Positions 30,756 through 48,276 of a stretch of DNA of 49,933 nucleotides are shown here, one piece after another. Positions within the stretch are counted from its first letter, which is position 1, and each line of letters begins with the position of its first letter. The DNA is taken from NCBI GenBank assembly GCA_024222475.1, contig JAAEPA010000156.1, forward strand, positions 1-49,933. The letters are read 5' to 3'. Source of the DNA: Gammaproteobacteria bacterium (GTDB lineage: Bacteria; Pseudomonadota; Gammaproteobacteria; JAAEPA01). The position numbers were made by a program, and so were the translations under genes. The notes under the pieces are model-generated. The model was not told where the DNA came from, searched no databases, and saw nothing but the letters and a program-made list of their open reading frames with translations.

Positions 30756-31002
30756 TAGTGTTGTGTTATGTGTATGCGATTAGATTGCTGGATCTAGGCA
30801 ATAGCTTATGCCTTCTCTATATGTTGTCACTACAGAGAATATCGAAATCCTGCTCAACGCACCAGCTCTTGGGTGGCTGCCGAAGCCACTAGGATTTTGC
30901 GAGCAAGGCGCTATTATGGTATACAGATCGTTTAGTGAGGTTTTCGCGTTCATCGTGTGCATAAAGAATACGTTTGGGGTACTGAATATGGGGATTTTTA
31001 AC

Positions 31003-31602
31003 ATGAAATTAATCTTTTCGTTATTTATAACATTCATACTGTCTTCGCCTTTAATCGCGGCGGGTGATGCCGGGGCAGGAAAACAGAAATCAGCAGCCTG
31101 CGCTGCTTGTCACGGGGCAGATGGCAATAGCGTCAATCTGGAATGGCCGAAGCTAGCAGGTCAGAGCGAGGCGTATTTGTTAAAGCAATTGAAAGATTTT
31201 AAGGGGCAAAAACGCGTCAATCCGTTGATGAGCGGACCTGTGGCTGCTCTTGAAGATCAGGATATGATGGATCTTGCGGCTTATTTCGCCACTCAAACTG
31301 GTTCACCCAGCAGTGCAGATGGTGCTCAGTTAGAGTTAGGGGAATTAATATATCGTGGGGGAAATCTTGAAACAGGTGTGGCGGCATGCACTGGCTGTCA
31401 TTCGCCCACCGGTGCGGGTAATGCCGCAGCCGTTTTTCCAAGGTTATCCGGTCAGCATAGTAAATACATATCAACTCAGTTGCGAAGTTTTCGTGATAAT
31501 CTGCGGGGTAATGATCAAGCGAGCATGATGCGCTCCGTGGCCAAGAGGATGACGATAGAAGAAATCGAGGCCGTGTCACAGTACGTTGCTGGTTTGCATT
31601 AA
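31003..31602 (+). CDS. cc4: Dihaem cytochrome c4
   Basis: ~199 aa from ATG 31003 (signal peptide MKLIFSLFITFILSSPLIAAG). Two CxxCH haem sites (CAACH, CTGCH). The ORF-track start at 30808 adds a non-secretory extension and is unlikely. Confidence 0.85.
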   Translation: MKLIFSLFITFILSSPLIAAGDAGAGKQKSAACAACHGADGNSVNLEWPKLAGQSEAYLLKQLKDFKGQKRVNPLMSGPVAALEDQDMMDLAAYFATQTGSPSSADGAQLELGELIYRGGNLETGVAACTGCHSPTGAGNAAAVFPRLSGQHSKYISTQLRSFRDNLRGNDQASMMRSVAKRMTIEEIEAVSQYVAGLH

Positions 31603-31671
31603 ATACCACCGTTCGATAGAACACAGCCTTCTAGGCGCTAGGGGTGGGCGCGGGATGCACTTTACCCCTGC

Positions 31672-31693
31672 CTAGATCACTACAGTGATCTAG
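31672..31693. repeat. Solo palindromic repeat unit (CTAGATCACT-AC-AGTGATCTAG)
   Basis: A 22-nt perfect palindrome sharing the CTAGATCACT core of the repeat family. It lies between cytochrome c4 and dsbA and could also act as a transcript-end hairpin. Confidence 0.55.
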
Positions 31694-31726
31694 CTTAAAA
31701 GATAAACAGCATCGAATAGTCCAATT

Positions 31727-32356
31727 ATGAAGCATATTGCATGGCTGCTGGGTTTGTTATTCATTACAGTGGGTCCCCTAGCCGCACAACAAGAGCCGTT
31801 TACAGAAGGGATACATTATCAAGCCCTGTTCCCGCAAGTTCCTACTGATGCGGCGCAAGGTAAGGTCGAAGTCGTAGCACTATTCTGGTATGGCTGCCCA
31901 CATTGTTACCAATTAGAGCCCTATGTGAGTAATTGGTTGAAGGATAAGCCGGGTTCCATTGATTTTAAGCGGATGCCGGCGACCATGAACCCTGGTTGGG
32001 TAACCCATGCTAGAGTTTATTTGGCGCTGGAATTGATTGGAGAGCTGGAAAGAATTCATCCGCTGATATTTTTAGCTATTCACGAACAGGGCAGGCGGTT
32101 GCAGGATTTGAAATCTATTAATCGATTCTTAGCTCAGCAAGGTGTTGATGTAAATAAATTTCTCGAGGCCTACCAGTCACCGGAGGCCCAGACCAAGCTG
32201 CGGCGGGTAATGTGGCTTAACCAGCAGTATGGTGCTCCCGGCGTTCCAGCAATAGTTGTCAATGGTAAATATCTGAGCTCAGCTAGTACCGCTGGAGGCT
32301 ATGTAAAGTTACTTGAACTTATTGAGTTTATAATAAAAAAAGAATCGAATAGTTAA
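31727..32356 (+). CDS. dsbA: Thiol:disulfide interchange protein DsbA
   Basis: 209 aa. Signal peptide, active site FWYGCPHCY, cis-Pro region GVPAIVVNGKY. Confidence 0.9.
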   Translation: MKHIAWLLGLLFITVGPLAAQQEPFTEGIHYQALFPQVPTDAAQGKVEVVALFWYGCPHCYQLEPYVSNWLKDKPGSIDFKRMPATMNPGWVTHARVYLALELIGELERIHPLIFLAIHEQGRRLQDLKSINRFLAQQGVDVNKFLEAYQSPEAQTKLRRVMWLNQQYGAPGVPAIVVNGKYLSSASTAGGYVKLLELIEFIIKKESNS

Positions 32357-32490
32357 AAAGTGCCTGAAGCTTCTAGGTCAGATTAGCGCAGCGTAACCCG
32401 ACAGATTAACTGATCCCATCTATCCTGATATTTTTATCTTTGGTCAGCAAATTCTGGTTTAGAACCGAACTTTGCCGATAGTACCTCATC

Positions 32491-33354
32491 GTGGTTATCA
32501 ATATTTCACCGTACAAGCTTCATCAAAGGGAGCATCCAAGTCAGCGGCTCAGAATCCTTACTTACAACATCCAGGTTGGGATTTCCTACAGTCGATACCG
32601 CCATTATCTAACCCGAAGCTGGAGACATGTATTACCCTTTCCTGGCCGCCAGGAGAATCTTGATAGCATTGCCCGTTTTATATCCGGATTCGACATTGTA
32701 GGATTACAAGAGGTCGATGCGGGTAGTTTGCGTAGTAGCTATATCAATCAGGCTAAGTACTTAGCGCATCGAGCTGGTTTTTCGAACTGGTATGTGCAAA
32801 CCAATCGCAATCTAGGCAGGATAGCGCAACATAGTCTAGGCATGTTAAGCGATCTGCGGCCCATAAGGATCATGGAGTGTAAGCTTCCAGGCAGAATTCC
32901 GGGGCGTGGGGTGTTATTCGCATTGTTTGGTGAGGGCTCACAGCAACTATTACTCGGTATTTTACACTTATCACTAGGGCGTAAAGCGCGCATTCACCAA
33001 TTTGAGTATCTTTCCCGGCTGGTTACTCGATATGAGCATGTGGTGCTTATGGGGGACTTTAACAGCTGTATAGATCAACCCGAGTTTCAAGTTTTTTTAA
33101 ACAATACTCACCTGTGTTCGCCGGAGAAAGAACTTTATACCTATCCAAGCTGGCGTCCCAGTCGGGGTTTAGATCACATCTTGGTTACCCCCGAGTTGAA
33201 GGTCGAGAGAACACATGTTTGCGATGCAGGTTATTCTGACCATCTACCCATCGCACTTGATCTTAGCCTGCCGAAATCTTTACGACTTACCCCGAGATAC
33301 GGTCATCCTATGCCGTCTGAAGTCTATGCGAAATCGGTGGTTTTGGGTGGCTGA
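32491..33354 (+). CDS. Endonuclease/exonuclease/phosphatase (EEP) family protein
   Basis: 287 aa. LRILTYNIQ, GLQEVD, VLMGDFN, SDHLPI are the EEP catalytic motifs. The start codon is uncertain (GTG 32491). Confidence 0.75.
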   Translation: MVINISPYKLHQREHPSQRLRILTYNIQVGISYSRYRHYLTRSWRHVLPFPGRQENLDSIARFISGFDIVGLQEVDAGSLRSSYINQAKYLAHRAGFSNWYVQTNRNLGRIAQHSLGMLSDLRPIRIMECKLPGRIPGRGVLFALFGEGSQQLLLGILHLSLGRKARIHQFEYLSRLVTRYEHVVLMGDFNSCIDQPEFQVFLNNTHLCSPEKELYTYPSWRPSRGLDHILVTPELKVERTHVCDAGYSDHLPIALDLSLPKSLRLTPRYGHPMPSEVYAKSVVLGG

Positions 33355-33879
33355 CACACGCCAACCATTCGTGATCGCAACAGCGAAGCGAGCTGATCGA
33401 GCGCAATTTTGAAGCCATTGAGCTTGGTACGACTCGACCAAGCATCAGACCTGTTATCTAAGCACAGGGAGGCTCTGGAAATGCATCTCTATAGCTACAT
33501 GAACAGTTCCTGTTCGCTGTAGTGGAAACCGTCACGCTCTATGGCCTGACAAATACCTTCTTCGAGGGTACGCCAGCCTCCAATCCAATAGCAACGTTCG
33601 GTCAATCAAAGAAAAGTATACAGACAGCCCGCTGGTCACTCTAGGGATTGATTCAAAAAAACTGTATTTCAATAATATGTAATATATTGATTTGTAAAAA
33701 ATATATTTTATATCCTAAAGCTTGGCTAGTTTTATTGAAGTCTGAAATTGTGTTGATCATAAACCGACTAGATCTGATATTTTACCGATAATCCAGTCGT
33801 AAGCCGTTCATCGGACAATTGGATCGGCTTGAGTGTTATACGTGCTTACCTATCTGTTTTTGTTGCTATAAAAATAGGT

Positions 33880-34407
33880 ATGAACGGCGAGCGCGGAGTT
33901 TCATTGATAGAGTTGATGATAGCCCTTTCCATAATGGCGATCCTGGCTTCTATCGCAATACCCTCATATCAATATTTAACTACCAATAACCGAATTACTA
34001 CTCACACCAATCGCCTACTTGGATCCTTACTTCTTGCACGTAGTGAGGCTGCAAAAAGAGGGGTAACGGTCTCGGTATGTCGTTCTAATAATCCAGTAGC
34101 CGCCTCGCCTACCTGCGGGACTGGTGTTGGTTGGAGTGACGGATGGGTCGTTTTTGAGGATTTGGGGGCTGATGGCAGTTTTACGGGTGGTACCGATACC
34201 GTGCTGCGTACTGAGGCCGCCATAAAAAGCGGCAACACAATAAAGTCTTCTTTTACAAACTTTATTCGTTACAGCCCAGAGGGTCGTAGTAATACCTTTG
34301 GTAGTTTTACGATATGTTCTAAAGACAATGATTCGAAATATACACGTGAGGTTGATGTGTCAGCCACAGGCAGGCCGCGTGTAACCACTTCGGGGACTTG
34401 TCCATGA
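33880..34407 (+). CDS. fimU: Type IV pilus minor pilin FimU/FimT (GspH-like)
   Basis: Prepilin leader and cleavage motif MNGERG/VSLIELMIAL. GspH-like body (LLLARSEAAKRG, GW.DGWVVF). The ATG at 33880 is preferred over the ORF-track start at 33829 because it gives the usual short leader. Confidence 0.8.
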   Translation: MNGERGVSLIELMIALSIMAILASIAIPSYQYLTTNNRITTHTNRLLGSLLLARSEAAKRGVTVSVCRSNNPVAASPTCGTGVGWSDGWVVFEDLGADGSFTGGTDTVLRTEAAIKSGNTIKSSFTNFIRYSPEGRSNTFGSFTICSKDNDSKYTREVDVSATGRPRVTTSGTCP

Positions 34408-34874
34408 CTGAGTATGGTAAAAATGCAGGTTTTAGTTTGATCGAGGTGTTAATCGCCGTTCTAGTTTTGAGTATCGGTCTATTGGGAATGGCTGCATTGC
34501 AGTCTTTAGGGATACGCTTCACTCACGACGCATACTTGTTGACGGTTGCCACTCAACAGGCCGAGGACATGGCCGAGAGGATGCGAACCAATCCAAGTGA
34601 AACCATAAAATTAGCTGGTACAGGTGGCTATGACAGCCTTTCAGGATTAGGGGTATCCACCGTAGATTGTGAAACAGCAACTTGCATATCTACCGATAGG
34701 GCGTTATTCGATCATGCCCAATGGAGTGCCTTTAACCAGTCTCTGTTTGGGGTTGGAAAAGAGGGGAGTGTTACCCGCAATGGTGACGTATTTAATATTT
34801 CGCTGAATTGGAGTGAGATTAATAATTCAGGTGGGGCAGATACTAAAAAATACATAATGGTGTTCAAGCCATGA
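34404..34874 (+). CDS. pilV: Type IV pilus minor pilin PilV
   Basis: Leader MTEYGKNAG/FSLIEVLIAVLVLSIGLLGMAALQ is typical of PilV. ATGA overlap with fimU. Confidence 0.8.
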   Translation: MTEYGKNAGFSLIEVLIAVLVLSIGLLGMAALQSLGIRFTHDAYLLTVATQQAEDMAERMRTNPSETIKLAGTGGYDSLSGLGVSTVDCETATCISTDRALFDHAQWSAFNQSLFGVGKEGSVTRNGDVFNISLNWSEINNSGGADTKKYIMVFKP

Positions 34875-35953
34875 AGGTAAAAATCGACACTATAAGTCTA
34901 ATTCAAGGTGCGCCGGGTAAGGTTTGTGCCTGTGGGTTGAGCATGCGTTGCGCGGGTGTGTCGTTAATCGAGCTGATGATAGCGATGACCATTAGTCTCG
35001 TTTTACTACTAGGGATTGCGCAGATCTATTCGGGCAGTAAAGAAACCTACCGTATTAATGAAGATTTAAGCATGATGCAGGAGACTACTCGCTTCGGATT
35101 CGAGTCTCTGACCGGTGCCATCATCATGGCCGATCATTGGGGAGGAGTGCCTTCTGCGGATATCAGTGTAACTGCAACCGGTATTACCGGAGGAACTGGA
35201 GATTGTAATGCGGCTTGGGTGACAAATATTGGCCAAGCGGTATTCGGGGCTGAAGGTGCGGCCAACATCAGCAGTGTTACCGGGTTCCAAAGCTGCTTGA
35301 GTACCGATCGTTATGTGCCTAACAGTGATGTATTAATTGTGCGTTATGCAGCGGGTCAGCCCATTGGTGATAGCGATGTGCAAAGTACGTCGAATCCAGA
35401 TAGGTCCAACGATTTATATGTTAGAACGGCTACCGGAGAAAAGGGAACCTTGTTTTGGGGCGGTGTAAGTCCAGTGTCGGCTACCGGTCTAAGTACGGAG
35501 AATGGTACGAATAACTATGTATATAGGGTTGAGGCTTTTTTTCTGCGCCCTTGTAGCACGCTTGATGCAAGTAGCAATTGTACTGATGGTATACCTACAT
35601 TAGCCAAGCTCACTTTTGATGACAGCGGTAGCGTGGTACAAGAGGCACAAGTAGACGGTGTCGAACAGATTCAATATCAATACGGAATCGATACTAACGC
35701 CGATGGCCAAGTGGAGCAATTTGCTTCGGCTACGAATGTGGCGAATTGGAATCAAGTGGTTGCCGTGCGCATAGATATGTTGGTGCGCACCGTGTCTGAA
35801 GACAGCGACTATATCGATACTAATACTACTTATACCTTGGCGGGAGGAACGGCCGACAATGGTCTTGTATACACCGTACCGACCGCAGATCGTGGCTTCC
35901 ATCGTAAACAACTGGCCAAGGTTGTGCAGATACGCAACCGGACTAGGTTTTAG
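34871..35953 (+). CDS. pilW: Type IV pilus minor pilin PilW
   Basis: CAG/VSLIELMIAMTISLVLLLGIAQIY N-terminal pilin helix. ATGA overlap with pilV. The alternative ATG at 34943 would give a short 5-aa leader. Confidence 0.8.
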   Translation: MKVKIDTISLIQGAPGKVCACGLSMRCAGVSLIELMIAMTISLVLLLGIAQIYSGSKETYRINEDLSMMQETTRFGFESLTGAIIMADHWGGVPSADISVTATGITGGTGDCNAAWVTNIGQAVFGAEGAANISSVTGFQSCLSTDRYVPNSDVLIVRYAAGQPIGDSDVQSTSNPDRSNDLYVRTATGEKGTLFWGGVSPVSATGLSTENGTNNYVYRVEAFFLRPCSTLDASSNCTDGIPTLAKLTFDDSGSVVQEAQVDGVEQIQYQYGIDTNADGQVEQFASATNVANWNQVVAVRIDMLVRTVSEDSDYIDTNTTYTLAGGTADNGLVYTVPTADRGFHRKQLAKVVQIRNRTRF

Positions 35954-35968
35954 ACAAGGAGTCATCAA

Positions 35969-36559
35969 ATGCAGCAGTCTCACCAACAGGGCTATGTGTT
36001 GTTCACGGGTTTGATATTTATGTTAATCCTGGCGGTGATCGGAGTCAGTGCCATGCAGGCCACGAATATCGAATATCGTATGAGTTCCAATACGGCGTTT
36101 AAGAAACAGGCCTTTGCTCGAGGCGAGAGTGGCCGTTCTGCTTTATCCGATGTGTTGAGCGACCACCTCGTCGCGGCAGGCACTTGGCCGGCATCGTTTA
36201 CCCTGCCATCGGGTCTTACTATCAAGGACAAAGACTCCAATGGTGTGGCTGATGACCTCTCTCAAAACGGAGGAGGCGAGACCCCAAATGCTCCCCTTGC
36301 GGATGCCGATTACCAGATTGATTACAATGTTGATGGTGATCTAACAGACTCAGAAGATATCGATGTCGAAGTTTCCACCTTTTGGCTGAAATCTAAAAAG
36401 GCCGTTGGGGCCGGTCTTGGGGACAGCTCTGGGACCTTGGGGGCAGGCAAGGGTATCTCGGGTGGTGGATTTCATATGTTTTTTCAGGTAAGGGCTGACG
36501 GAACAGCCCCTTCACAAGCTCGTTCAAATGTGCTCGTTGACTATCGGCACATTCCTTAA
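35969..36559 (+). CDS. pilX: Type IV pilus minor pilin PilX
   Basis: 196 aa. PilX_N-type N-terminus QQGYVLFTGLIFMLILAVIGVSAMQ. AAGGAG lies upstream of the ATG. Position between pilW and pilY1. Confidence 0.75.
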   Translation: MQQSHQQGYVLFTGLIFMLILAVIGVSAMQATNIEYRMSSNTAFKKQAFARGESGRSALSDVLSDHLVAAGTWPASFTLPSGLTIKDKDSNGVADDLSQNGGGETPNAPLADADYQIDYNVDGDLTDSEDIDVEVSTFWLKSKKAVGAGLGDSSGTLGAGKGISGGGFHMFFQVRADGTAPSQARSNVLVDYRHIP

Positions 36560-36577
36560 GGCTTCTAGGTGACTGTC

Positions 36578-39500
36578 ATGGAAAAGAATATATCGCATAC
36601 CCCTTTATGCAAAGGATTGTTTCATCGATTAATCACGCTAATCGGTGGTTTCATCCTCGGTCTTGCGGCCGCGGTTCCCTTCCAAGTGTATGCCGCCGGT
36701 GAAACATCGGCCGATTATATCGCCATACCTCCATTCATCGCCCAGACCACAGACCGGCCCAATGTCATCATATCGCTAGATACCTCTGGAAGCATGAAGA
36801 TTCCAGCATACGGACAAATCGGTAAAAGCTGGAGTAGCGATGTTCATGACAATTTTGATCCGTCCACGGTATATTATGGCTATTTCGATCCTACCAAATA
36901 TTACGTCTATGATGATGATCCTGCCAAACTATTCTTTATAGAGGATCCCGTAAGCCCTTCTGCAAAGACTACGGACAACTGGGACGGTAATTTCTTGAAT
37001 TGGTTGAGCATGCGTCGTTTTGATATCGTGCGCAAGGTGCTGATTGGTGGCAAGGTGAGAGACCGAAACACCGAGAGCATTGGGGGTGACGACTGGTATG
37101 TGCTGCTGGGTCAGGATGAACCCCAGGATCGACAATTCTATAAGTCCTACACTTCGAGCAGTGCCCATACGCCCACCCAATATGCCGATGGCACTGTTTT
37201 TGAAATGGCTAATGGGAAGATTATTCCTACCACAGGGGGAGCGGGGAGTAACGTGCAGGTCATTAACGTGCAGGATACTCCTAGTGAATCCGTGGAAATG
37301 GGCCAAGTCACTATGGATTGGCAAATCGGTGATCCATGGGTCGATGTCAGCTTTATCAATACCTATGCGACTCCACCCGTGGTCGTGGCCAAATCACTGG
37401 CATTCAATGGTGGCGATCCCACCTTGATTCGGGTTCAAAACATCACCACTACGGGATTTCAGATTCGCATGCAGGAATGGGATTACAAAGATGGTAATCA
37501 CACCACAGAAGAATTGTTCTATATTGCTGCAAACTCCGGAAATTACAATATTACACTTGATAGCGGGAGCAGTTTGAGGGTAGAGGCAGGAACGATTAGC
37601 GGTGTGAGCACCCTATGTGATAGTTCCACTCAACATCAGGCCCTGTCCCCCTTCTTATCGACACCTGTGTTATTCACCGGTATCAGCACCTTCAACGAGG
37701 CCGATGCGGTGGTGACTCGAAATGAGAATGTGGCCACCAATGGTTTTGATGTCTGTCTACAGGAACAGGAATCCAAAACAGTAGCTTCGGAATCGCACGC
37801 CGCTGAAGATATCCACTATATCGCGATTGCTCCAGGCAGCGCAGTGGGCACTCTTCCCAGCTCGGGGGTAACGAGTACTGCCGGTGCTCAGATCGAGATT
37901 GGTGACAGTGGTGGCACCAATATTGATGACAGCTGGGATCTCATCACCTTCGCAACAACCTTTAGGGAACCTCCCACGGTGGTAATGGACATGCAGACCC
38001 TACAAGGGGACAATACCGCCACGCTGAGGGTGGCGGATGATACCTGGACGACTACTCAGATGGATGTGAAAGTCGAGGAGGAAAAATCTGACGACTCCGA
38101 AACAACCCATGTTGATGAGAGAATCGGGTATGTCGCCGTGAGTGGTTCCGGCACTTTTAACATTCATCTGGCAATAAAAGAAACCGACACCGTTAATAGA
38201 CCCAAGGAACCCAAAGGCCTGCTTCAGGCCCTTGAAGGAGGGATGCGCCTGGGGCTGGCGGTATTTAATTATAATCATGACCGGAATCCGACTTCTGTTT
38301 ATTCCACGTCTGGAAAGGATTTTGATGGCGGTACATTTTTTCCTTGCTATCCGGATGTGTTAAAACCGACTTCACAGCGCACCAACTGGGATATCTGTAA
38401 GGAAACCTATGCCGGCGCCCCGTTGGATGATCTGATCGAGGTTATTGAAGATCACCCGCTGATCTGGGCGACCACTCCTATCGCTGAAACCCTATACAAT
38501 ATCGGTCAGTATGCAGTCCAGGGTAATCATCCTACCGGAACAGATTTGAACTCCAATCCATGGCCTCATGATGAGATACGCCAGGGATATCCAACGGCCC
38601 CTTCACCCAACCATACCCCGCTTTTTGCCAACAACGATGGCTCTACTGCTCACCCCAATGTCGGCACCCACCCGCCGTATAAGGTCAATAACACTTGGGA
38701 TCCTTATTATTATTCCGATGTCAATGCAACACTGCCCTGCGCTAAGACCTTTGTATTGAATTTCAATGATGGAGCACCGTATACGGATTGGGATACCTCA
38801 AATGGTTTTACCGTACCTACCGACTTTGTGGGCGATGGAGATGGTGACTATGGTGAGAATGAGGCACTAGACGATGTTGCCTTAATGTTCCGTAATCAAG
38901 ACATACGAGATGATTTGGCAGGGCATCAGGAAATTGTTTCATACTATGTGCTTGCGGCCTTAGGAGCTGACCCGAGCGAAGTCGGTGCAACCTCACGCAG
39001 ACGCCTGATGGAAGCGGCCGTCAATGGAGGTTTCAATGATCTTGACGGCGATCATCTTCCGGATGTGGCTCATCCGGCAGATATAGTCAACTATATCTCT
39101 ACCCATGATGATAATGGCGATCTATCCGATGGCGGGGATTGCAGTGCTTTAATCAATGAGTGGGACCAAGATGGTGACTGTGTTCCCGATACATTCTTCT
39201 TTGCTAACGATGGATTTAAACTAGAGCAGGAACTGCTGGCGGCTTTTCAGTCCATATTGAAACGTGTAGCCTCAGGTGCAGCGGCCTCGGTATTAGCGGG
39301 TTCAACGAGTGGCGAGGGCGCGATCTATCAAGCACGATTTGAACAAGAGCGCACTGAAGGTGCTACTACCGTCCATTGGATCGGCGACATCACTGCAACG
39401 TTTATCGATAGCGCAGGTCGTCTGCGCGAAGATGGGGATGGAGATCAGGTATTGGATGGAGACATCACTGTCGATGAGATTATCGACATGTGCTACAACA

Positions 39501-41821
39501 CCAGTGATCAAGAGGTCCGGGTAAAAACCTCTGACGATCCAGCTGACCGGCCAACATCAGCCCAATTTACGGCCTGTAACCAATCGACCTTCAGTCAAAA
39601 TCTATTTACCGTTGATTATTTATGGAGTGCCGGTAAATGGCTCTATGATCTTAGTAATACAGAGGTGTTAACACAAGGTGCGTATTCCGCCATCAACAAC
39701 AGGTACATCGTCACTGCAATTGATGGTTCGGACGGAAGTTCTCGAAATGGAATAATCGAGAGGGATGAACAACAGGATTTTGAAGATGCGAGTTTCAGCG
39801 GTAGGGAAGGTTTGCTGTCTGCCACAACGAATTCGGAAGCGGCAGATATCGTCAACTTTACCCGTGGCAGCAATGCGGTCGCTAGTTACCGTAGTCGGCA
39901 GATTGAGATAGGCGCAAGCGAAAAGACATGGCGTCTGGGTGATGTCATTCATTCATCGCCTATCGCCTTGGCGATGCCGGCGGAGGATTACCACTTTATC
40001 TATGCAGGAACGACATTTGGTAATAGTTATAAGAACTTTGTGGTTGAGTACTTGAATCGCAGAACCATGGTATTCACAGGTGCCAATGATGGTATGGTGC
40101 ACGCATTCAACGGTGGATATTATGACCAGTCAATAAAAACCTATCAGAATGGTTTCTCTAGCACCACACAATATCCGTTAGGAAAGGAGTTGTGGGCCTA
40201 TCTACCCTATAATGTATTGCCTCATCTAAAGTATCTGGCCGATGCCACCTATGGGAGTCAGGATGGCGACCATCTTTATATGATAGATGCGGAGCCGCGC
40301 ATCTTTGACGCCAGGATATTCAATGACGCTGCCAGCTCAACTACCGGTGGTGTCGATGGTCAGAGCGGCAGTGCTCACCCCAACGGTTGGGGTACGATCC
40401 TGGTGGGATCCATGCGATTTGGCGGCGGCCCTGTGCAGATAGACGTCGATAATGACGGCTCGTTAGACGAGACGCTGAGTTCCTCCTTTTTTATCCTGGA
40501 CATCACGGATCCCGAATCACCGCCACAGGTACTGTTCGAGTACACAATGGCCGATCTTGGTTTTACTATGTCGATACCTACACCAATCAGGAAAAATGAT
40601 GTCAATGGTATCGACCAATGGTACTTGTTGCTGGGTTCCGGGCCAATTGATGCAACATCCCCCCCCTTGGGCGTACGGGATGCCACCAGCTCACAACATG
40701 CCAGACTGCTGCTGCTTGATCTCAAGTCTATGAGCTTGGAGAGTGCCTTTGATAGTGACGGTATCGTGGTGCTGAATGGCGCAGATGATGCCACAAATGC
40801 CTTTGTGACGGGCATGTTACCGGTGGACTATAATCTGGACACGCAAACAGATGCCGTTTATATCAGCACGGTGAGCGGTACGACAGGAAACTTCGCTGGG
40901 AAACTATACCGACTGACCTTGCGCAGCAGCGACGGCACGGGTGTTCCAAACAGCGGTAGTTATAAAGATATCGCTTCATGGTCGACAGAGATCATGCTCG
41001 ATGATGTCGGACCCATTTCAGCGCTCCCAAATGCTGCGGTAGATTCGTTTGGTAATCGGTGGATATTCATAGGAACCGGCCGTTTTCTAGTACGCAATGA
41101 TGCCATCGACAGTAGTCAGCAGGCCTACTATGGTATCAAGGAACCCAGAGATAGCACTGCAGGTGGTTTTATTTGGGGGGCAGTAGATAAAAATAAACTC
41201 GTGAATGTGACGACTACCGGTGTGAATACGGATGATACACTGTCATCTAGTGTTGATACCCTGAGCAGCGCTAATTCTGTGAGTACCTATTCCGCACTCA
41301 ACACCGCCATGGTCAAACCTCCAACCAGTACCTTTAATGCCAACCATGGCTGGTATCGCAGCTTTGGTCAGTCACCGCAAACGGCATATGAGCGCAACGT
41401 CGGGCAGGCTGCGGTATTGGGTGGCATCTTGGCTTTTACTACCTTCGAACCGTCGGGCGATATATGTGCGTACGAAGGCTCATCTAATCTCTATGCCTTG
41501 AGTTTTACCACCGGCACGGCAAATCCGGGTGCAGCAGCCTTCGGCACTCCTGATACCTCTGGTGGGGCTGTACCAGTGGTTGATTTGGTCGATCTGGGCG
41601 AAGGCCTGGTGACGACTGTCAGTTTCCACACCAGCCCAGGTTACAAGAAGACCAGCCACTCCAACAACGGAGATCCTACTGGGGATGATTCTACCAGTAG
41701 CCATGGTACAGATACCCTGGGGGCCATTGCCGTATCATCAACAGGTGAAAATAGTCAAACCGAGATGCAGACTTCTGGAGCGGTAACCAGTGGCGAGTCA
41801 AATTGGCGTTTCGAGTATTAA
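36578..41821 (+). CDS. pilY1: PilY1-family type IV pilus tip adhesin, unusually large (~1747 aa), with an interrupted vWA domain
   Basis: Signal peptide. vWA MIDAS DTSGS, WDGNFLNWLSMRR, TTPIAETLYN, FVLNFNDGAP. C-terminal PilY1 propeller motifs WRLGDVIHSSP, GANDGMVHAFN, ELWAYLP, VDYNLDTQTDAVYIS. AGGTGA lies 5 nt before ATG 36578; the ORF opens at GTG 36569. Confidence 0.85.
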   Translation: MEKNISHTPLCKGLFHRLITLIGGFILGLAAAVPFQVYAAGETSADYIAIPPFIAQTTDRPNVIISLDTSGSMKIPAYGQIGKSWSSDVHDNFDPSTVYYGYFDPTKYYVYDDDPAKLFFIEDPVSPSAKTTDNWDGNFLNWLSMRRFDIVRKVLIGGKVRDRNTESIGGDDWYVLLGQDEPQDRQFYKSYTSSSAHTPTQYADGTVFEMANGKIIPTTGGAGSNVQVINVQDTPSESVEMGQVTMDWQIGDPWVDVSFINTYATPPVVVAKSLAFNGGDPTLIRVQNITTTGFQIRMQEWDYKDGNHTTEELFYIAANSGNYNITLDSGSSLRVEAGTISGVSTLCDSSTQHQALSPFLSTPVLFTGISTFNEADAVVTRNENVATNGFDVCLQEQESKTVASESHAAEDIHYIAIAPGSAVGTLPSSGVTSTAGAQIEIGDSGGTNIDDSWDLITFATTFREPPTVVMDMQTLQGDNTATLRVADDTWTTTQMDVKVEEEKSDDSETTHVDERIGYVAVSGSGTFNIHLAIKETDTVNRPKEPKGLLQALEGGMRLGLAVFNYNHDRNPTSVYSTSGKDFDGGTFFPCYPDVLKPTSQRTNWDICKETYAGAPLDDLIEVIEDHPLIWATTPIAETLYNIGQYAVQGNHPTGTDLNSNPWPHDEIRQGYPTAPSPNHTPLFANNDGSTAHPNVGTHPPYKVNNTWDPYYYSDVNATLPCAKTFVLNFNDGAPYTDWDTSNGFTVPTDFVGDGDGDYGENEALDDVALMFRNQDIRDDLAGHQEIVSYYVLAALGADPSEVGATSRRRLMEAAVNGGFNDLDGDHLPDVAHPADIVNYISTHDDNGDLSDGGDCSALINEWDQDGDCVPDTFFFANDGFKLEQELLAAFQSILKRVASGAAASVLAGSTSGEGAIYQARFEQERTEGATTVHWIGDITATFIDSAGRLREDGDGDQVLDGDITVDEIIDMCYNTSDQEVRVKTSDDPADRPTSAQFTACNQSTFSQNLFTVDYLWSAGKWLYDLSNTEVLTQGAYSAINNRYIVTAIDGSDGSSRNGIIERDEQQDFEDASFSGREGLLSATTNSEAADIVNFTRGSNAVASYRSRQIEIGASEKTWRLGDVIHSSPIALAMPAEDYHFIYAGTTFGNSYKNFVVEYLNRRTMVFTGANDGMVHAFNGGYYDQSIKTYQNGFSSTTQYPLGKELWAYLPYNVLPHLKYLADATYGSQDGDHLYMIDAEPRIFDARIFNDAASSTTGGVDGQSGSAHPNGWGTILVGSMRFGGGPVQIDVDNDGSLDETLSSSFFILDITDPESPPQVLFEYTMADLGFTMSIPTPIRKNDVNGIDQWYLLLGSGPIDATSPPLGVRDATSSQHARLLLLDLKSMSLESAFDSDGIVVLNGADDATNAFVTGMLPVDYNLDTQTDAVYISTVSGTTGNFAGKLYRLTLRSSDGTGVPNSGSYKDIASWSTEIMLDDVGPISALPNAAVDSFGNRWIFIGTGRFLVRNDAIDSSQQAYYGIKEPRDSTAGGFIWGAVDKNKLVNVTTTGVNTDDTLSSSVDTLSSANSVSTYSALNTAMVKPPTSTFNANHGWYRSFGQSPQTAYERNVGQAAVLGGILAFTTFEPSGDICAYEGSSNLYALSFTTGTANPGAAAFGTPDTSGGAVPVVDLVDLGEGLVTTVSFHTSPGYKKTSHSNNGDPTGDDSTSSHGTDTLGAIAVSSTGENSQTEMQTSGAVTSGESNWRFEY

Positions 41822-41923
41822 CCTACCTATACAGGGGGCCTTGGATTCTCAAAATTTCTTGCCGAAAGCGTTGCATAGAAGTACAAGGCATCGTTCTAAG
41901 GTCCTCAGTATTTAGGAGTAAAA

Positions 41924-42337
41924 ATGTCCTATAAACGCTATGAACTTGGATTTAATTTAATCGAACTCATGATAGTAGTAGCGATATCCTCCATCATTGC
42001 TATGGTGGCGATACCTGCATATCAAGATTCGGTGATAAAGGGTAAACGTACTGAGGGGCAAGCCGCTTTAGTGAATATGGCGAATCGTATAGAAAAGTAT
42101 TTCTATGATAACAACAGCTATGTAGGCGCTACAGCTACCGGTTTGATGGGCAGTAGCGCAACCGAAAGTGGTTATTATCAGTTGCAAATTTCCGTAGCTA
42201 CTGCGACGGCTTATACTCTGCAGGCTCAGCCAGCCGGCAACTTCGATGATGCTTATTGCCAGACCCTTACCTTAGATCACTCTGGCACCAAAGGCGTTGC
42301 GGGCGGTGCAACCAAACCGGCATCTGAGTGCTGGTGA
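41924..42337 (+). CDS. pilE: Type IV pilus minor pilin PilE
   Basis: 137 aa. Leader MSYKRYELG/FNLIELMIVVAI, then AIPAYQDSVIKGKRTEGQAAL and a C-terminal Cys pair. AGGAG lies upstream. Confidence 0.8.
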   Translation: MSYKRYELGFNLIELMIVVAISSIIAMVAIPAYQDSVIKGKRTEGQAALVNMANRIEKYFYDNNSYVGATATGLMGSSATESGYYQLQISVATATAYTLQAQPAGNFDDAYCQTLTLDHSGTKGVAGGATKPASECW

Positions 42338-42350
42338 GACCACAGCTATC

Positions 42351-43307
42351 CTAGTCTGGATGGGGTTGTGGTTTCGTCCTTAGTTCTTGCGGCAGGCTGA
42401 AAACTACCTCTTCACGAACGCCATCAATTTCCCGAATAACTGCTGTGCCGTAACGTCCGAGCTTCTTAATAACACGCTGAACCAGTATTTCGGGTGCTGA
42501 TGCTCCTGCTGTAACACCAACGCATCGTTTATCTTTCAGCCAACGATCATCAATTTCCTCTGGACCGTCAATCAAATAAGCTTCTACCGGCTTGTTGGCG
42601 GCGATCTCCTGTAAGCGGTTGGAGTTGGAGCTGTTGGGAGAGCCGACGACCAGGATCAGGTCGCACTTGGCGACTAGTTGCTTCACTGCGTCTTGCCGGT
42701 TTTGCGTTGCATAGCATATATCGCTCTTGCGTGGACCGTAGATCTTTGGAAAGCGTTTTTGCAGGGCCTGGATAATCACGGCTGTATCGTCTATAGACAG
42801 TGTCGTCTGGGTGACGATCGCCAGAATATCAGGGTTCTTAACTCGCAGTTTTTCAACATCTTGAGGGTTCTCTACGAGATAGATGGCGCCCCCTTTTGAG
42901 CAGTCATATTGACCCATGGTCCCCTCGACCTCTGGATGGCCAGCATGTCCGATAAGAATAGTCTCGCGACCTTCCATGCAATATCTAGCGACCTCAAGAT
43001 GGACCTTGGTGACCAATGGACAGGTTGCATCAAAGACCTTGAGCTCGCGCTTACTCGCCTCCTGTTTTACCGCCCGAGAAACCCCATGCGCACTGAAGAT
43101 AACCGTGGCGTCATCGGGTACTTCACTGAGCTCCTCAACGAAAATTGCGCCTTTTCGTTTTAGATCATCGACTACAAACTTGTTATGAACCACTTCATGA
43201 CGCACATAGATCGGCGCCCCGAATAGCTCAAGGGCGCGTTTCACGATTTCGATAGCCCGGTCTACACCGGCACAGAAACCGCGAGGAGTTGCGAGTAGTA
43301 CTTCCAT
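42351..43307 (-). CDS. ispH: 4-hydroxy-3-methylbut-2-enyl diphosphate reductase (IspH/LytB)
   Basis: 318 aa. [22 protein letters not shown], and [12 protein letters not shown]. Conserved ribF-ileS-lspA-fkpB-ispH order. Confidence 0.93.
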
Positions 43308-43417
43308 TCTATATACCTACCTATGGCTATTCGGAACTTGCTGGGAGGATTTGGGTTGATGGACGATTATAAATAAACTGACCTGCCAAGGGGGGAAAGC
43401 AGAGCGCATTTGGTGTC

Positions 43418-43870
43418 TCATGGGTTTGACACCTCCAAGATCTCCACAATATAGGTCAGCTCATGACCGGCCAGAGGATGATTAAAATCCACTCTTACAT
43501 GATCTTCAGTCATATCGAGGACAATCCCTGGAATTTGATCACCACCGGGGGTGGTGAATTCTACAATTACACCTGGTTCTAAGGGAATTTCCTGGGGAAA
43601 CTCGCCTCTGGCGAGTGCATGAACGGCCTGCGGATCACGAAAACCAAAACTTTGTTCTGGGGAGATATTAAATCGTCCTTTGTCTCCACGGCCAAGGCCA
43701 TAGAGGACCTGTTCTAGGCCCTGATGAAGTTCCCCCGTACCGATGACCAGTTCCACCGGTTCTTGCCCAAAGCTGCTTTCAGCAATCATGCCGTCTTCCA
43801 GGGCGATGGAGAAATGCAGTTTGACCTTACTTCCCATAGCAATAGATTTGGATCTGCCGTTCATTTTCAT
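43418..43870 (-). CDS. fkpB: FKBP-type peptidyl-prolyl cis-trans isomerase (FkpB/SlpA-like)
   Basis: ~140-150 aa. VKLHFSIALEDG, the HPLAGHEL motif of SlyD/FkpB-type PPIases, and synteny. The start may be ATG 43837. Confidence 0.8.
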   Translation of the reverse strand: MKMNGRSKSIAMGSKVKLHFSIALEDGMIAESSFGQEPVELVIGTGELHQGLEQVLYGLGRGDKGRFNISPEQSFGFRDPQAVHALARGEFPQEIPLEPGVIVEFTTPGGDQIPGIVLDMTEDHVRVDFNHPLAGHELTYIVEILEVSNP

Positions 43871-43883
43871 ACCATCGAGTTGA

Positions 43884-44393
43884 TTATCCTTGGTTTCCGG
43901 CTTCGGAGGATCGAGGCCTATTGAAAAAAAGACCGTGGATCATCAATACACTGGCACCCACAGTGATGGCCGAATCGGCAATATTGAAGGTCGGCCAGTA
44001 GTAGTCCTGGTAATACCACTGGATAAAGTCGATGACATGACCATAAAGCAGACGGTCGATCAGGTTACCCAATGCCCCGCCAAGCACCAAAGATAGTCCT
44101 ATGGCGGTCCATTTCTCGGAACTGTCTAACCGGGCTAGCCATGTCAGCAGGAATATGCAAACCGCCAGGGCCAACAGACTGAAGAACCAGCGTTGCCAGC
44201 CTCCGGCATCGCTCAAGAAGCTGAAGGCTGCGCCGGTATTGTAGACTAGGGTGAGATTGAATGAAGGAATTACAGATACCGGGATATGTAGGTCCAGGGC
44301 GCGTTCCGCCTGCCATTTGGTCAGCTGATCGATCAGAATTACCAATCCGGATAGCCCTGTCCACTTAAGCATATCGGCGTTGCTCGCCTTCAC
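43884..44393 (-). CDS. lspA: Lipoprotein signal peptidase (signal peptidase II)
   Basis: 169 aa. NTGAAFSF and FNIADS motifs, four TM helices. Overlaps the 3' end of ileS. Confidence 0.9.
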
Positions 44394-47202
44394 CGTCTAC
44401 ATTCGATACACATCGGCCGCAGAGTTGAGGGTGATTCTGATTCTTGCCGACGTCTTTTCGGTGATGCCAGCAGCGGATGCATTTGTCGTGGGAGCTGGGT
44501 GTGGCTCTGATCCCGATCTCACCGCTACTCAGCGTATAGTTCACCGTATCCGTCGGGGGGGTAACGCCGTTGTAGATTCTGGCATATGAGGTAATGAGCA
44601 CAAAGCGTAGTTCATCCTCCAATTTTTCGAGTGTTGCGTATAGCTTTTCGTCGCAATAAAGATCGACTTCGGCATCCAGCGATGATCCTATCCGATTATT
44701 GACCCGCAATTTTTCTAACTCCTTACTAACCGCATCACGCACCTCGATGACTTCGTCCCAGAACGATGTCATGGTCATGCCCTTTGCTCTTTCCTCGTCT
44801 GGATACGTTATCGCTGGGATGTCATGCCAGGTGCTCAGGAACACGGATTCCTCCCGGCTGCCGGGGATGAGTCCCCAGATTTCTTCCGCCGTGAAACTTA
44901 GCACCGGAGCCAGCCAGTGCGCCATGGCTTGGATAATATGATACATGGCGGACTGGGCCGAGCGCCGGGCGCTGCTGTCCGCTTGGGTGGTGTAGAGCCG
45001 GTCTTTGAGGATATCGAGATAGAAGTTACCCATCTTCACCGTACAGAAGTTGTGCAGTTCCTGATAGATCCGATGGAACTCGTAGGTCTTGTAGGCAATC
45101 TTGATGTTAGTTTGCAGCTGGGTGGCTTGGTCCACGGCCCATCTGTCCAGAGACAGCATGTGCGTGGGTGCAAGTGCAAACATATCTTGTTGCGGATCGA
45201 AGCCATGCAAATTTCCGAGCAGAAAACGTGCCGTATTACGGATGCGCCGATAGGCATCGGCCGTGCGTTTGATAATTTCGTCGGACACCGCCATCTCGCC
45301 GCTATAATCTGCGGAGGCGACCCATAGACGTAGGATATCGGCGCCCAGGGCCTTGATCACTTTTTGTGGGGCAACCACGTTCCCGCGAGACTTTGACATC
45401 TTCTGCCCCTTGGCATCGACGGTGAACCCATGGGTGAGCACCTGTTTATAAGGCGCAGTGCCATGCATGGCCACCGCAGTAAGTAGCGAGGACTGAAACC
45501 AACCACGATGCTGATCGGAACCCTCCAGATAAAGATCAGCCGGATATTCGAGTTCATCACGCACATCCAATACACAGGCATGGGTCACACCGGAGTCGAA
45601 CCAGACATCCAGGGTGTCGGTGACCATTTCGTAATCCTCGGCCTCTTCGCCCAGGAGTTCTGCGGGCTGGAGTTCGAACCAAGCATCGATGCCTTTGGTT
45701 TCCATTTTGACAGCTACTGATTCCATAAGCCTTGTTGTATCGGGGTGAAGTTCGCCGCTGTGTCGGTTAACAAACAGGGCGATGGGTACACCCCAGGTTC
45801 GTTGTCGGGAGATACACCAATCAGGTCGAGTTTCAATCATGCCGCGGATCCTGGCCATGCCCCAATCGGGTATCCAACGTACTTCTTTGATGGCATCGAG
45901 GGCCTGTTCGCGCAATCCGGCCTGATCCATGCCTATGAACCATTGAGGGGTAGAGCGAAAGATGATCGGCGTCTTGTGCCGCCAGCAGTGCGGATAGCTG
46001 TGCCGTAGCGGCTCCTGATGTACCAGTGTTTGGTGTTGTTCCAACACCTCGATGACATGGGTGTTGGCCTCGAACACCGATTCACCTGAAAAAAGCTCGG
46101 TATCGGGCAAAAACCGACCGTCTGGACCTACCGGATTGGTCACGGGTAATTGGTAGGGTAAACCCACAGCATAGTCATCCTGACCATGCCCGGGGGCCGT
46201 GTGTACTGCGCCTGTTCCGGCCTCTATGGTCACGTGTTCACCCAGGATGATCGGGACCTCGCGCGCGTAAAAGGGGTGTTTGAGGCGTTGATGCTCTAAG
46301 GCCCGGCCTAGGCAGTGACCTAAGATCCGTGGACTTTCCAGTCCATAACGTCGGCAGGCGGAATCCATGAGATCTTGTGCCAGCAGCAGGCGTTCATCAT
46401 CGGTCTGTATCAGGACATAGGTCAGGGTAGGGTGTAGGGCAACGGCCTGATTTGCAGGTAATGTCCATGGTGTAGTCGTCCAGATGATCACTGACACAGG
46501 ACCCTGACCCTGTTCGGCGAACGAGCCTTTTGCTAGGAATTCGGCGATATCTGCGACCGGGAAGCGCGCATCGATCGATGGCGATGTCTTGTCCTCATAT
46601 TCAACCTCCGCTTCTGCCAATGCAGAACCGCACTCCACGCACCAATGTACCGGTTTGGCGCCCCGATGCAGATGGCCTCGATCAATGATTTTTCCCAGCG
46701 CGCGCAAGATATTGGCCTCGAAGCCGAAGTCCATGGTCTGATAAGGCCGATCCCAAGCACCTAAGATCCCCAAGCGCTTGAAGTCGTGCCGTTGGGTATT
46801 GATCTGAGTTGCCGCATAGTCGCGACAGGCCTGACGAAAGGCCATGTGATCAACTTTGTGTCCAGCGCGACCAAGCCTTTTTTCAACCTGCAATTCTATG
46901 GGTAGACCATGGCAATCCCAACCGGGTATATAAGGGGCATCAAAACCGCTCAGCGTCTTGCTCTTGACGATGATGTCCTTGAGCACCTTGTTGACTGCAT
47001 GGCCGATATGGATTTCCCCATTGGCATAGGGAGGGCCATCATGGAGGATAAATTTTGGTCTTCCGCTAGATGCTTGGCGAATTTTCCGGTACAGCCCGTC
47101 TGTTTCCCAGCGCCTGAGCATCTCTGGCTCACGTTTGGCTAGATTGCCACGCATGGGGAATTGAGTCTTGGGTAGGTTTAGGGTGTTTTTATAGTCGCTC
47201 AC
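44365..47202 (-). CDS. ileS: Isoleucine--tRNA ligase
   Basis: 945 aa. HIGH motif ([14 protein letters not shown]), KMSKS, C-terminal zinc-binding CIRCWH...CGRC. Confidence 0.96.
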
Positions 47203-47241
47203 GATAAAAAAGAGTCTTGTTGTTTGGTGCTAAGTAATGGT

Positions 47242-48162
47242 TCAAAGTACATTGCGGGCCATGGTCACATCGTGCCGGATTTGTATCTTCAGGGCGTCAA
47301 GTGAATCAAACCGGGTTTCCTCCCGAAGCTTATAGAGTAGATCTACATGCAGATGCCGGCCATAGATTTCATCGGTGAAATCCAGTAAATGGACCTCTAT
47401 TCGTTTATCGGTACCGTTCACGGTAGGCCGAGTCCCGATATTAACAACGGCATTGAGTGGGTAGTTGTTCAGGCCGTGGACCTTTGCTGCAAAGACGCCG
47501 TTTACCGGAGAAACTTGACGGCCGAGACGCACATTGGCTGTAGGAAATCCCAGTTTTCTGCCCAGTCTTTCCCCCTGGACGACTCTGCCGCTGATTCGAT
47601 AAGGACGCCCTAAAAATCTTTGTGCCGTTTCCAGATCGCCACGTTGCAGGGCATGACGAATAAGGGTGCTGCTGGCCCTCTTACCGTCGATGATAAATGA
47701 TGGCATGTGAGTGACTTCAAATCCGAACTCTCGACCGGCCTCTTGTAGCATGGCGTAGTTACCTTTTCGGTCGCTACCGAACTGGAAGTCGTCTCCCACG
47801 ACCAGGTAGCGTACTCCAAGACCATCCACCAGGGTCTGCTTAATGAAGATCTCGGGCAGCATATCAGCCAAGCCCTGATTAAACCGCAGGCAAAGTAGCC
47901 GGTCTATGGCAAAATTTTGAATAACCTGGAGCTTCTCCCGAAATCGGGTCAGGCGCGCCGGGGCCTTAGAGCCAGTAAAAAATTCCCGGGGAAGGGGTTC
48001 GAATATGATCACTTGGGAGGGCAGCCGCAATTCCTTCGCCTTGTTGGTAACTTGCCGAAGTACTGCCTGGTGACCACAATGCACACCATCGAAATTACCG
48101 ATAGTGGTGACACATCCTCGATGCCTGGGCGACAGATTATAGCTGCCTCGAATCAGCTCCAT
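47242..48162 (-). CDS. ribF: Bifunctional riboflavin kinase/FMN adenylyltransferase
   Basis: 306 aa. GNFDGVHCGHQ, and a riboflavin kinase C-terminal half (GFPTAN, EVHLLDF). Confidence 0.92.
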   Translation of the reverse strand: MELIRGSYNLSPRHRGCVTTIGNFDGVHCGHQAVLRQVTNKAKELRLPSQVIIFEPLPREFFTGSKAPARLTRFREKLQVIQNFAIDRLLCLRFNQGLADMLPEIFIKQTLVDGLGVRYLVVGDDFQFGSDRKGNYAMLQEAGREFGFEVTHMPSFIIDGKRASSTLIRHALQRGDLETAQRFLGRPYRISGRVVQGERLGRKLGFPTANVRLGRQVSPVNGVFAAKVHGLNNYPLNAVVNIGTRPTVNGTDKRIEVHLLDFTDEIYGRHLHVDLLYKLREETRFDSLDALKIQIRHDVTMARNVL

Positions 48163-48276
48163 AAGGTTTCCATAAATCCACCATTATAGAGGCTGTCTGG
48201 TAAAAGATGAATCAATCCTAATGCTGATTTCCACCATTTCCGAATATCGATAAGGAATGCGAATGAAATAACTTCC

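Follow-up and report, generated by a model that had tools for sequence, protein, structure and literature searches.

The DNA analysed here (the window) is a stretch of 49,933 nucleotides, positions 1 to 49,933 of contig JAAEPA010000156.1 (assembly GCA_024222475.1), from a marine gammaproteobacterium. It harbours a canonical minor-pilin operon in which the open reading frame (ORF) at 36569..41821 is, by its sequence and position, the gene of the type IVa pilus tip adhesin PilY1. Its product carries, within its N-terminal von Willebrand factor type A (vWA)-like domain, a cassette of three H-type-lectin-fold domains (37220..38155, aa 218-529), which is predicted to close into a ring and may form a glycan-binding head at the pilus tip. 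Features are on the forward strand unless stated otherwise, and amino acid (aa) numbering throughout follows the 1750-aa reading of the ORF from its GTG codon.

The pilY1 gene and its operon

The PilY1 beta-propeller domain (39935..41146, aa 1123-1526) is recognised by the Pfam family PF05567 (T4P_PilY1, IPR008707), with 32.4 bits for the whole protein and 35.9 bits for a C-terminal fragment, the cut-off being 28.1. A profile of the homologue family matched the C-terminal structure of Pseudomonas aeruginosa PilY1 (3hx6) with an E-value of 2.5e-61; the single sequence gave no match among the PDB sequences. Motif searches located WDGNFLNW (aa 138-145), the propeller motif NDGMVHAFN (aa 1173-1181) and DVDNDGSLD (40442..40468, aa 1292-1300), a D-x-D-x-D-G-x-x-D loop that may correspond to the calcium site of PilY1. 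An earlier note on this DNA, made from the letters alone, had listed normal PilY1 landmarks; all of them are present, with DTSGS at aa 71-75 and not at 70-74 as given there. The same note had called the protein giant by comparison with P. aeruginosa PilY1, which is about 1160 aa long, against 1750 aa here; this size is not exceptional, many of the retrieved PilY1 homologues having 1500-1900 aa with or without this insert.

With regard to the neighbouring genes, minor-pilin Pfam families match all five ORFs flanking pilY1. Upstream lie a fimU/fimT-like minor pilin (33829..34407; GspH and N_methyl), a pilV-like one (34398..34874; Tt1218-like), pilW (34871..35953; PilW) and pilX (35969..36559; PilX_N), and downstream a pilE-like minor pilin (41924..42337; N_methyl and ComP_DUS family), giving the order fimU-pilV-pilW-pilX-pilY1-pilE. 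No pilY2 is present between pilY1 and pilE (41822-41923), and no extra ORF was found between pilX, pilY1 and pilE, although a secreted partner of the CofJ or TcpF kind could be encoded elsewhere. Beyond pilE, ispH, an FKBP isomerase gene (fkpB), lspA, ileS, ribF and murJ follow on the opposite strand (42351-49791). The locus of Amphritea balenae shows the same minor-pilin operon layout, and the gene order of P. aeruginosa PAO1 around PA4550-PA4562 is presumably the same as here, leaving aside pilY2, which makes the ORF the positional counterpart of pilY1. The comparison indicates that the synteny of the fimU-pilE operon and of the ispH-to-murJ neighbours has been kept across distant gammaproteobacteria.

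The start codon of pilY1 is ambiguous (36569-36580): the ORF finder places it at GTG 36569, for 1750 aa, and NCBI at ATG 36578, for 1747 aa in the record GY807_04005. This NCBI protein (P0038 among the retrieved proteins) is 100% identical to the pilY1 product and is annotated 'hypothetical protein'. A putative N-terminal signal peptide (36578..36694; MEKNISHT...VPFQVYA, followed by AGE) was read from the translation, and aa 41-61 have a predicted local distance difference test (pLDDT) score below 50 in an AlphaFold2 (AF2) model.

A cassette of three H-type-lectin-fold domains

The earlier note had described three divergent tandem repeats of about 90 aa at 37289-38143, which correspond to aa 241-525. 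Alignment with insert-less homologues and an AF2 model of aa 225-535 delimit a cassette at 37220..38155 (aa 218-529), with repeats R1 at 37289..37543 (aa 241-325), R2 at 37568..37843 (aa 334-425) and R3 at 37883..38152 (aa 439-528). Smith-Waterman scores of 92 for R1/R2, 86 for R1/R3 and 51 for R2/R3, set against shuffle means of 23-27 (z = 16.4, 12.0 and 5.1), bore out the repeats; none of 2000 shuffles equalled the observed scores, and R1 reached at most 36 against other 95-aa segments of PilY1. Identity between the repeats is 23-27% by BLASTP. In an alignment of 45 repeats, the near-invariant columns are P34, R52, E67, H75 and E78 (in that alignment's own numbering), within PP-V-V, R-V, GF, E, H-x2-E and Y-I-A elements, and the motif listed in the earlier note corresponds to these conserved columns. 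Chance repeats or an assembly artefact were excluded by the shuffle statistics and by the same architecture in independent assemblies whose proteins are 75%, 63% and 55% identical.

That the pattern resembles the H-type lectin domain, as had been proposed, found support in two independent tests. The first is the Pfam family H_lectin (PF09458; curated cut-off, 24 bits), which ranks first whether the query is the whole protein (44.1 bits), the insert on its own (50.3 bits) or any single repeat. Scored singly, R1 lies above the cut-off (26.8 bits), and R2 (13.1 bits, E 0.1, a weak match) and R3 (22.8 bits, E 1e-4) lie below it. Its InterPro counterpart, the H-type lectin domain, is presumably IPR019019. 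No NCBIfam family matched the PilY1 protein or the insert.

The second test is the fold. The AF2 model of the insert, built on 44 aligned cassettes, has a mean pLDDT of 92.9 and a predicted template-modelling (pTM) score of 0.92, and displays six strands per repeat plus short linker strands. In Foldseek searches, it matched the H-type lectins with probabilities of 0.92-0.98, namely, Helix pomatia agglutinin (HPA; 2ce6, probability 0.98, target TM-score 0.62; 2cgy, 0.92 and 0.62), Helix aspersa agglutinin (HAA; 4q56, 0.95 and 0.65) and the coral lectin SLL-2 (3wmp, 0.97 and 0.60). Further matches were the fibre gp53 of phage AP22 (4mtm, 0.95 and 0.47) and R-type pyocin fibres (6cl6 and 6cxb, probabilities 0.84 and 0.57, target TM-scores 0.20 and 0.43). 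Over the insert model and a larger one of aa 41-960, H-type lectins and related trimeric fibre tips of phages and pyocins were the only high-probability matches in the PDB. The E-values of the whole-model searches were weak (>0.08), since a three-domain query was compared with single-domain targets. The Pfam and fold results together support the reading of the three repeats as H-type-lectin-fold domains. On its sequence, the cassette is a diverged bacterial subfamily of H-type lectins, too far from the solved ones for a direct sequence link.

The insertion site and its host domain

Alignment with repeat-less PilY1 homologues places the cassette at the tip of a small beta-meander, which it replaces. 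On the entry side of the hairpin lies the host strand VFEMANGKI (37196..37222, aa 210-218; model strands E170-174 and E177-181), and on the exit side the host strand FNIHLAIK (38156..38179, aa 530-537; model strand E493-497). Between these anchors, minimal PilY1s have 15-33 aa and cassette-bearing ones 283-339 aa. The flanking landmarks are the DTSGS motif (36779..36793, aa 71-75), of the DxSxS type found in metal-ion-dependent adhesion sites (MIDAS) and located directly after strand 1, NVIISL (aa 65-70; model strand E25-30), and the segment PKGLLQALEGGMRLGLAVFN (38210..38269, aa 548-567), which includes PKGLLQ (aa 548-553) and RLGLAVFN (aa 560-567) and would contribute helix 1 and strand 2 (model H511-515 and E520-527). 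This segment is conserved in all aligned PilY1 homologues.

In the AF2 model of aa 41-960 (pLDDT 84, pTM 0.83), strand 1 (aa 65-70) is followed by DTSGS, a PilY1-specific subdomain containing WDGNFLNW and the cassette hairpin, and then by helix 1 (aa 551-555), strand 2 (aa 560-567) and alternating strands and helices up to about aa 930. With this model as the query, Foldseek assigned only low probabilities to vWA-containing chains (0.12 for ITIH1, 6fpy; 0.01 for an integrin, 4nen). Alignment and model both support an insertion in the N-terminal vWA-like domain, between strand 1 with its DTSGS motif and helix 1. The position claimed in the earlier note was thereby upheld; the vWA label itself, which has no Pfam VWA match behind it, should be used with the qualification that it rests on the DxSxS motif, the alpha/beta alternation of the model and the literature on P. 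aeruginosa PilY1, as cited in PMC8179133 and PMC9210963. All these PilY1s carry a precomputed database annotation, PF28373.

The same hairpin loop accommodates unrelated inserts of 53-205 aa in other lineages (P0076, P0078, P0083, P0088, P0097, P0099 and P0102), among which the inserts of about 200 aa in P0099 and P0102 resemble each other by eye. Pfam searches returned nothing significant for four of these inserts (P0099, P0102, P0083 and P0097), and only the propeller for five other long PilY1s. On these alignments, the hairpin loop (aa 210-537 here) is a recurrent insertion site of PilY1, whose content varies among lineages. In other respects, a Pro/His/Asn-rich stretch within the vWA-like domain (38528-38662, aa 654-698; NHPTGTDLNSNPWPHDEIRQGYPTAPSPNHTPLFANNDGSTAHPNVGTHPP) has a pLDDT below 50 and is probably a disordered, clade-specific loop, which would account for part of the extra length.

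The triple as a unit and a predicted closed ring

Scanning the retrieved proteins with a hidden Markov model of the repeat showed exactly three repeats, at the same place, in every cassette-bearing PilY1 (P0038-P0074 and P0084). Other proteins have three, six or nine copies; three is the usual number, and an RTX-like protein has nine, as 3 x 3. The complete triple was also turned into a profile of 284 positions. Among 1.84 billion representative proteins, it matched 8,317 when the limit was set at E <= 1e-3 and 4,250 when it was lowered to E <= 1e-30, and the alignments typically took in nearly all 284 positions. Among the best 149 of the 8,317 proteins, 137 contain 6, 9, 12 or 18 domains, and 202 of their 233 tandem runs have a length of 3, 6, 9 or 12; in the exceptional runs, mostly one domain was undetected or truncated.

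Repeats at the same position are 34-40% identical across proteins (32-36% between PilY1 and non-PilY1 proteins), compared with 24-26% for repeats at different positions, even inside one protein. The higher identity at matching positions argues that the triplication is old and that the three positions have since kept separate identities.

The arrangement of the domains was approached by mean-field direct coupling analysis (DCA), for which 215 proteins supplied 376 complete cassettes (282 columns; effective number 349). Each of the three domains yielded the same within-domain couplings independently of the others (columns 51-67, 143-159 and 233-249 are one such set), which validates the signal. 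Between domains, position 34 (the second Val of PVVV) of one domain was coupled to position 80 of the next, with scores of 1.10 for D1-D2, 1.88 for D2-D3 and 1.26 for D3-D1. These correspond to z = 4.7-8.1 (inter-domain standard deviation 0.234), the reversed orientation giving 0.41-0.72, and the largest minimum of three in 200,000 random draws was 0.55. Furthermore, positions 67-69 of all three domains were mutually coupled, as expected near a threefold axis. A D3-D1 coupling like those of D1-D2 and D2-D3 fits a closed pseudo-threefold ring and would not be predicted by a linear array. Together with the copy numbers in multiples of three, the pTM of 0.92 and the confidently modelled linkers between the repeats (pLDDT 91-98), the cyclic couplings indirectly support a closed ring, in which the cassette would copy, within one polypeptide, the homotrimer of all characterised H-type lectins and so act as a single-chain pseudo-trimer. 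In these lectins, the sugar sites, which bind N-acetylgalactosamine (GalNAc), lie at the protomer interfaces (PMC6048534).

Candidate ligand pockets

Four polar residues stand out in all three domains over the 376 cassettes: Arg51 (95-97%), Glu66 (75-99%), His74 (90-97%) and Glu77 (97-99%). The PilY1 studied here retains all twelve of them, as R285, E300, H308 and E311 in R1, R381, E396, H407 and E410 in R2, and R484, E501, H511 and E514 in R3. In the DCA, Arg51 of one domain was coupled to His74 of the next with scores of 0.85, 0.54 and 1.01 at the three interfaces. Conservation and couplings thus lend indirect support to three candidate pockets, all intact, each interdomain interface being lined by the Arg of one domain and a Glu/His/Glu cluster.

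The pairing of an Arg with the His of an adjacent domain resembles HPA, whose GalNAc contacts are Asp26, Arg63, Tyr89 and, from the neighbouring chain, His84. Aligning the repeat profile by hhalign with the HPA sequence gave a probability of 51% and an E-value of 1.5e-4, with the invariant Arg opposite R67; an ungapped alignment starting from PPVV places it opposite R63 instead, and this ambiguous correspondence was not used as evidence.

Distribution of the cassette

The architecture, which the earlier note proposed to survey among homologues, is not unique to this gene. PilY1 proteins with the cassette form about 38 protein clusters (at 90% identity), 36-75% identical to the present one, and include those of the cultured species Amphritea balenae and A. 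japonica, which bear no annotation beyond 'PilC/PilY family'. A genome scan with a narrow alignment yielded only five loci, which give a thin taxonomic picture, including a metagenome-assembled genome (MAG) of Methylococcales, one of Desulfobacteria and other MAGs. Recent horizontal acquisition of the insert was rejected, given its G+C content (0.507, against 0.493 for the rest of the gene) and the clade-wide architecture.

Outside PilY1, the triple cassette occurs, among the proteins examined (P0124-P0272), mostly in large surface proteins of 570-6,200 aa with two to three complete cassettes. Two pilin-like proteins, P0009 (525 aa; beginning with ...GFSLIEM...) and P0105 (2420 aa; beginning with ...GFTLIEL...), each bear a single cassette at the C-terminus, which supports a role as a pilus-displayed binding head.

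Other features of the window

The C-terminal tail of PilY1 (41620-41818, aa ~1685-1750) is rich in Ser, Thr and Gly (HSNNGDPTGDDSTSSHGTDTLGAIAVSSTGENSQTEMQTSGAVTSGESNWRFEY) and carries the family-consensus motif SGExSWR at its end. Immediately upstream of the pilin operon (30808-33354) lie genes for a di-haem cytochrome c (30808-31602), a DsbA-like thioredoxin (31727-32356) and a protein of the endonuclease/exonuclease/phosphatase family (32491-33354). A noncanonical cytochrome c is reported to aid calcium binding by PilY1 in Myxococcus.

Comparison with known systems

The protein shares with P. aeruginosa PilY1 (PA4554) and the PilC/PilY1 family the C-terminal propeller with its D-x-D-x-D-G-x-x-D loop, the DxSxS motif and the WDGNFLNW segment, as well as, assuming the PAO1 order given above, the operon and its ispH-fkpB-lspA-ileS-ribF-murJ neighbours. 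It differs by a triple H-lectin cassette of about 310 aa in a loop that spans 15-33 aa in minimal PilY1s, by further clade-specific insertions in the vWA-like domain and by the absence of pilY2.

A trimeric H-type-lectin-like head at the tip of a type IV pilus is already known from CofB of the CFA/III pilus of enterotoxigenic Escherichia coli and from TcpB of Vibrio cholerae (PMC6048534, PMC9565799). Both are type IVb minor pilins with an H-type-lectin-fold domain at the C-terminus. Three copies of the CofB chain come together to build its head; here, a single chain that is not a pilin would supply all three domains of the ring. Pfam found no N_methyl or pilin match in the PilY1 ORF, the N-terminus of which reads as an ordinary signal peptide and not as the class III signal peptide of pilins such as CofB and TcpB. 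The CofB head domain is recognisable by structure only (PMC8179133), whereas the present cassette matches Pfam H_lectin. CofB binds a peptide of CofJ and not GalNAc, and no CofJ-like gene is present in the operon studied here.

The eukaryotic H-type lectins (HPA, HAA, discoidin I/II and SLL-2) belong to the same Pfam family and have in common with the cassette the six-stranded beta-sandwich and, as predicted for the latter, a three-fold assembly with sites expected at the interfaces. They are homotrimers of single-domain chains, whereas the cassette would be a fused pseudo-trimer with three diverged positions, 14-18% identical to them and with a different, invariant Arg/Glu/His/Glu cluster in place of the sugar contacts of HPA, which are not clearly conserved.

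Modular, lectin-bearing PilY1 adhesins are likewise known. Modular PilC/PilY1 proteins and pilins combine a tip-docking carrier with a ligand-binding effector module, as does the present protein (PMC8179133, PMC11046646, PMC9934059); examples are the PA14, ricin B, F5/8C and ConA-like modules of InterPro, PilY1.1 of Myxococcus xanthus with DUF4114, and PilC of Streptococcus sanguinis. Here, the module sits inside the N-terminal domain, not fused to an end, and is an obligate triple. H-type lectins are not among the 68 PilC/PilY1 architectures of a published InterPro survey, in which PA14, ricin B, F5/8C and ConA-like modules are present, and a literature search found no paper joining PilY1 with an H-type lectin. 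The earlier remark that such an insert is not part of the described PilY1 architecture holds for this catalogue and for the literature searched. What is new is the triple H-lectin insert in PilY1 and an H-lectin subfamily that works as an obligate fused triple.

Function of the cassette and alternative explanations

The best explanation of the whole, to which we assign a probability of about 0.6, is that this PilY1 is a tip adhesin with a ring-shaped head of three H-type lectin domains that likely binds a glycan at the pilus tip. The C-terminal propeller would dock onto the minor pilins and the N-terminal domain would face outward, in line with models of type IVa tip complexes, in which the propeller sits on the minor pilins and the N-terminal domain is the ultimate tip (PMC11046646, PMC8179133). 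The ring would then be displayed at or near the distal end of the pilus, and would most likely bind a surface glycan, probably of the GalNAc, galactose or N-acetylglucosamine type, providing a glycan-directed attachment against which pilus retraction can pull.

Several observations weigh against this explanation. Pfam found no VWA match in the whole protein, in N-terminal fragments or in a spliced core lacking aa 79-543. A phmmer search of the insert against PDB sequences reached only E~1, for HPA and HAA, and profiles of the triple and of the single repeat matched no H-type lectin among them; what connects the cassette to HPA is therefore the Pfam model together with the similarity in fold. 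The DCA relied on a modest set of 376 cassettes. Joint loss of the pocket Arg and His was strongest for the pair that would close the ring, with the Arg in domain 3 and the His in domain 1 (odds ratio 70, p 3.5e-11), but was diffuse across domains and not specific to the interfaces, and was not used as independent proof. Clear counterparts of Asp26, His84 and Tyr89 of HPA were not found in the cassette by hhalign against the HPA sequence. Finally, CofB, the only studied H-lectin head of a pilus tip, binds a peptide and not GalNAc (PMC6048534).

This last point leads to an alternative that we consider unlikely, in which the ring would be a head for capturing a peptide or protein, as in the pairs CofB-CofJ and TcpB-TcpF. 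A flexible peptide of a secreted or host protein would lie in the grooves between the domains, and adhesion would depend on this captured partner, or else the pilus would deliver it. In the H-type lectin trimer of CofB, an N-terminal CofJ peptide occupies the pocket where a sugar would be expected, and GalNAc is not bound (PMC6048534); TcpB-TcpF is similar to CofB-CofJ (PMC9565799), and the sugar-contacting residues of HPA are not recognisable in the cassette. Yet the operon encodes no extra secreted protein, pilY1 ending at 41821 and pilE starting at 41924, a layout shared by Amphritea balenae; the cassette, unlike CofB, matches the H_lectin sequence model; and the same invariant Arg/Glu/His/Glu cluster recurs in thousands of unrelated surface proteins, which fits a common small ligand better than protein partners particular to each lineage.

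An arrangement of the three domains as independent beads on a string, with no ring, would be in keeping with the linear tandem lectin or Ig-like repeats that are common among bacterial adhesins. We regard it as quite improbable in view of the model scores (pTM 0.92, linker pLDDT 91-98), the copy numbers in multiples of three, the position-specific conservation of the repeats, the D3-D1 coupling at the same positions as D1-D2 and D2-D3, and the fact that all characterised H-type lectins are trimers with sites at their interfaces. Least probable is a cassette without a ligand, acting as a rigid spacer or as a variable decoy that would shield the vWA/MIDAS face from antibodies, phages and proteases: the cassette does evolve faster than its host (in comparison with P0040, R2 is 38% identical and the rest of the vWA-like domain 77%) and unrelated inserts occupy the same loop in other lineages, but in all three domains the polar Arg/Glu/His/Glu cluster is kept at 90-99% over the 376 cassettes, whose 215 proteins differ widely in architecture, and it is difficult to account for this unless the cluster has a conserved role in function or assembly.

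The preferred explanation, a ring-shaped lectin head on PilY1, can be extended to the cassette at large, and to this wider proposal we would give about even odds. The triple cassette may be a hitherto unrecognised single-chain, pseudo-trimeric, ligand-binding supermodule, deployed by bacteria as one invariable block (3, 6 or 9 domains) in large surface proteins by the thousand. In one gammaproteobacterial clade of PilY1, it would have given a monomeric type IVa tip adhesin, convergently, a trimeric head like those that type IVb pili obtain by homotrimerising CofB or TcpB, for glycan-directed, retraction-coupled attachment.

Implications for PilY1 and the H-type lectins

Type IVa pili adhere mainly through PilY1, which has also been proposed to be a mechanosensor, yet few ligands have been identified for its variable N-terminal part. 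In this regard, the cassette offers a recognisable binding module with predicted pockets (R285, R381 and R484, each with a Glu/His/Glu cluster) and cultured carriers. It would represent a parallel design across pilus classes, in which a tip trimer of H-type lectin domains takes three chains in type IVb pili and a single one in the present PilY1, and it points to one hairpin loop of PilY1 as a site of module display across lineages. For annotation and modelling, the rule that follows is that this bacterial subfamily of H-type lectins comes in obligate triples, which concerns more than 8,000 protein clusters. If the supermodule proposal is true, glycan-directed and retraction-coupled attachment would become directly testable in cultured Amphritea.

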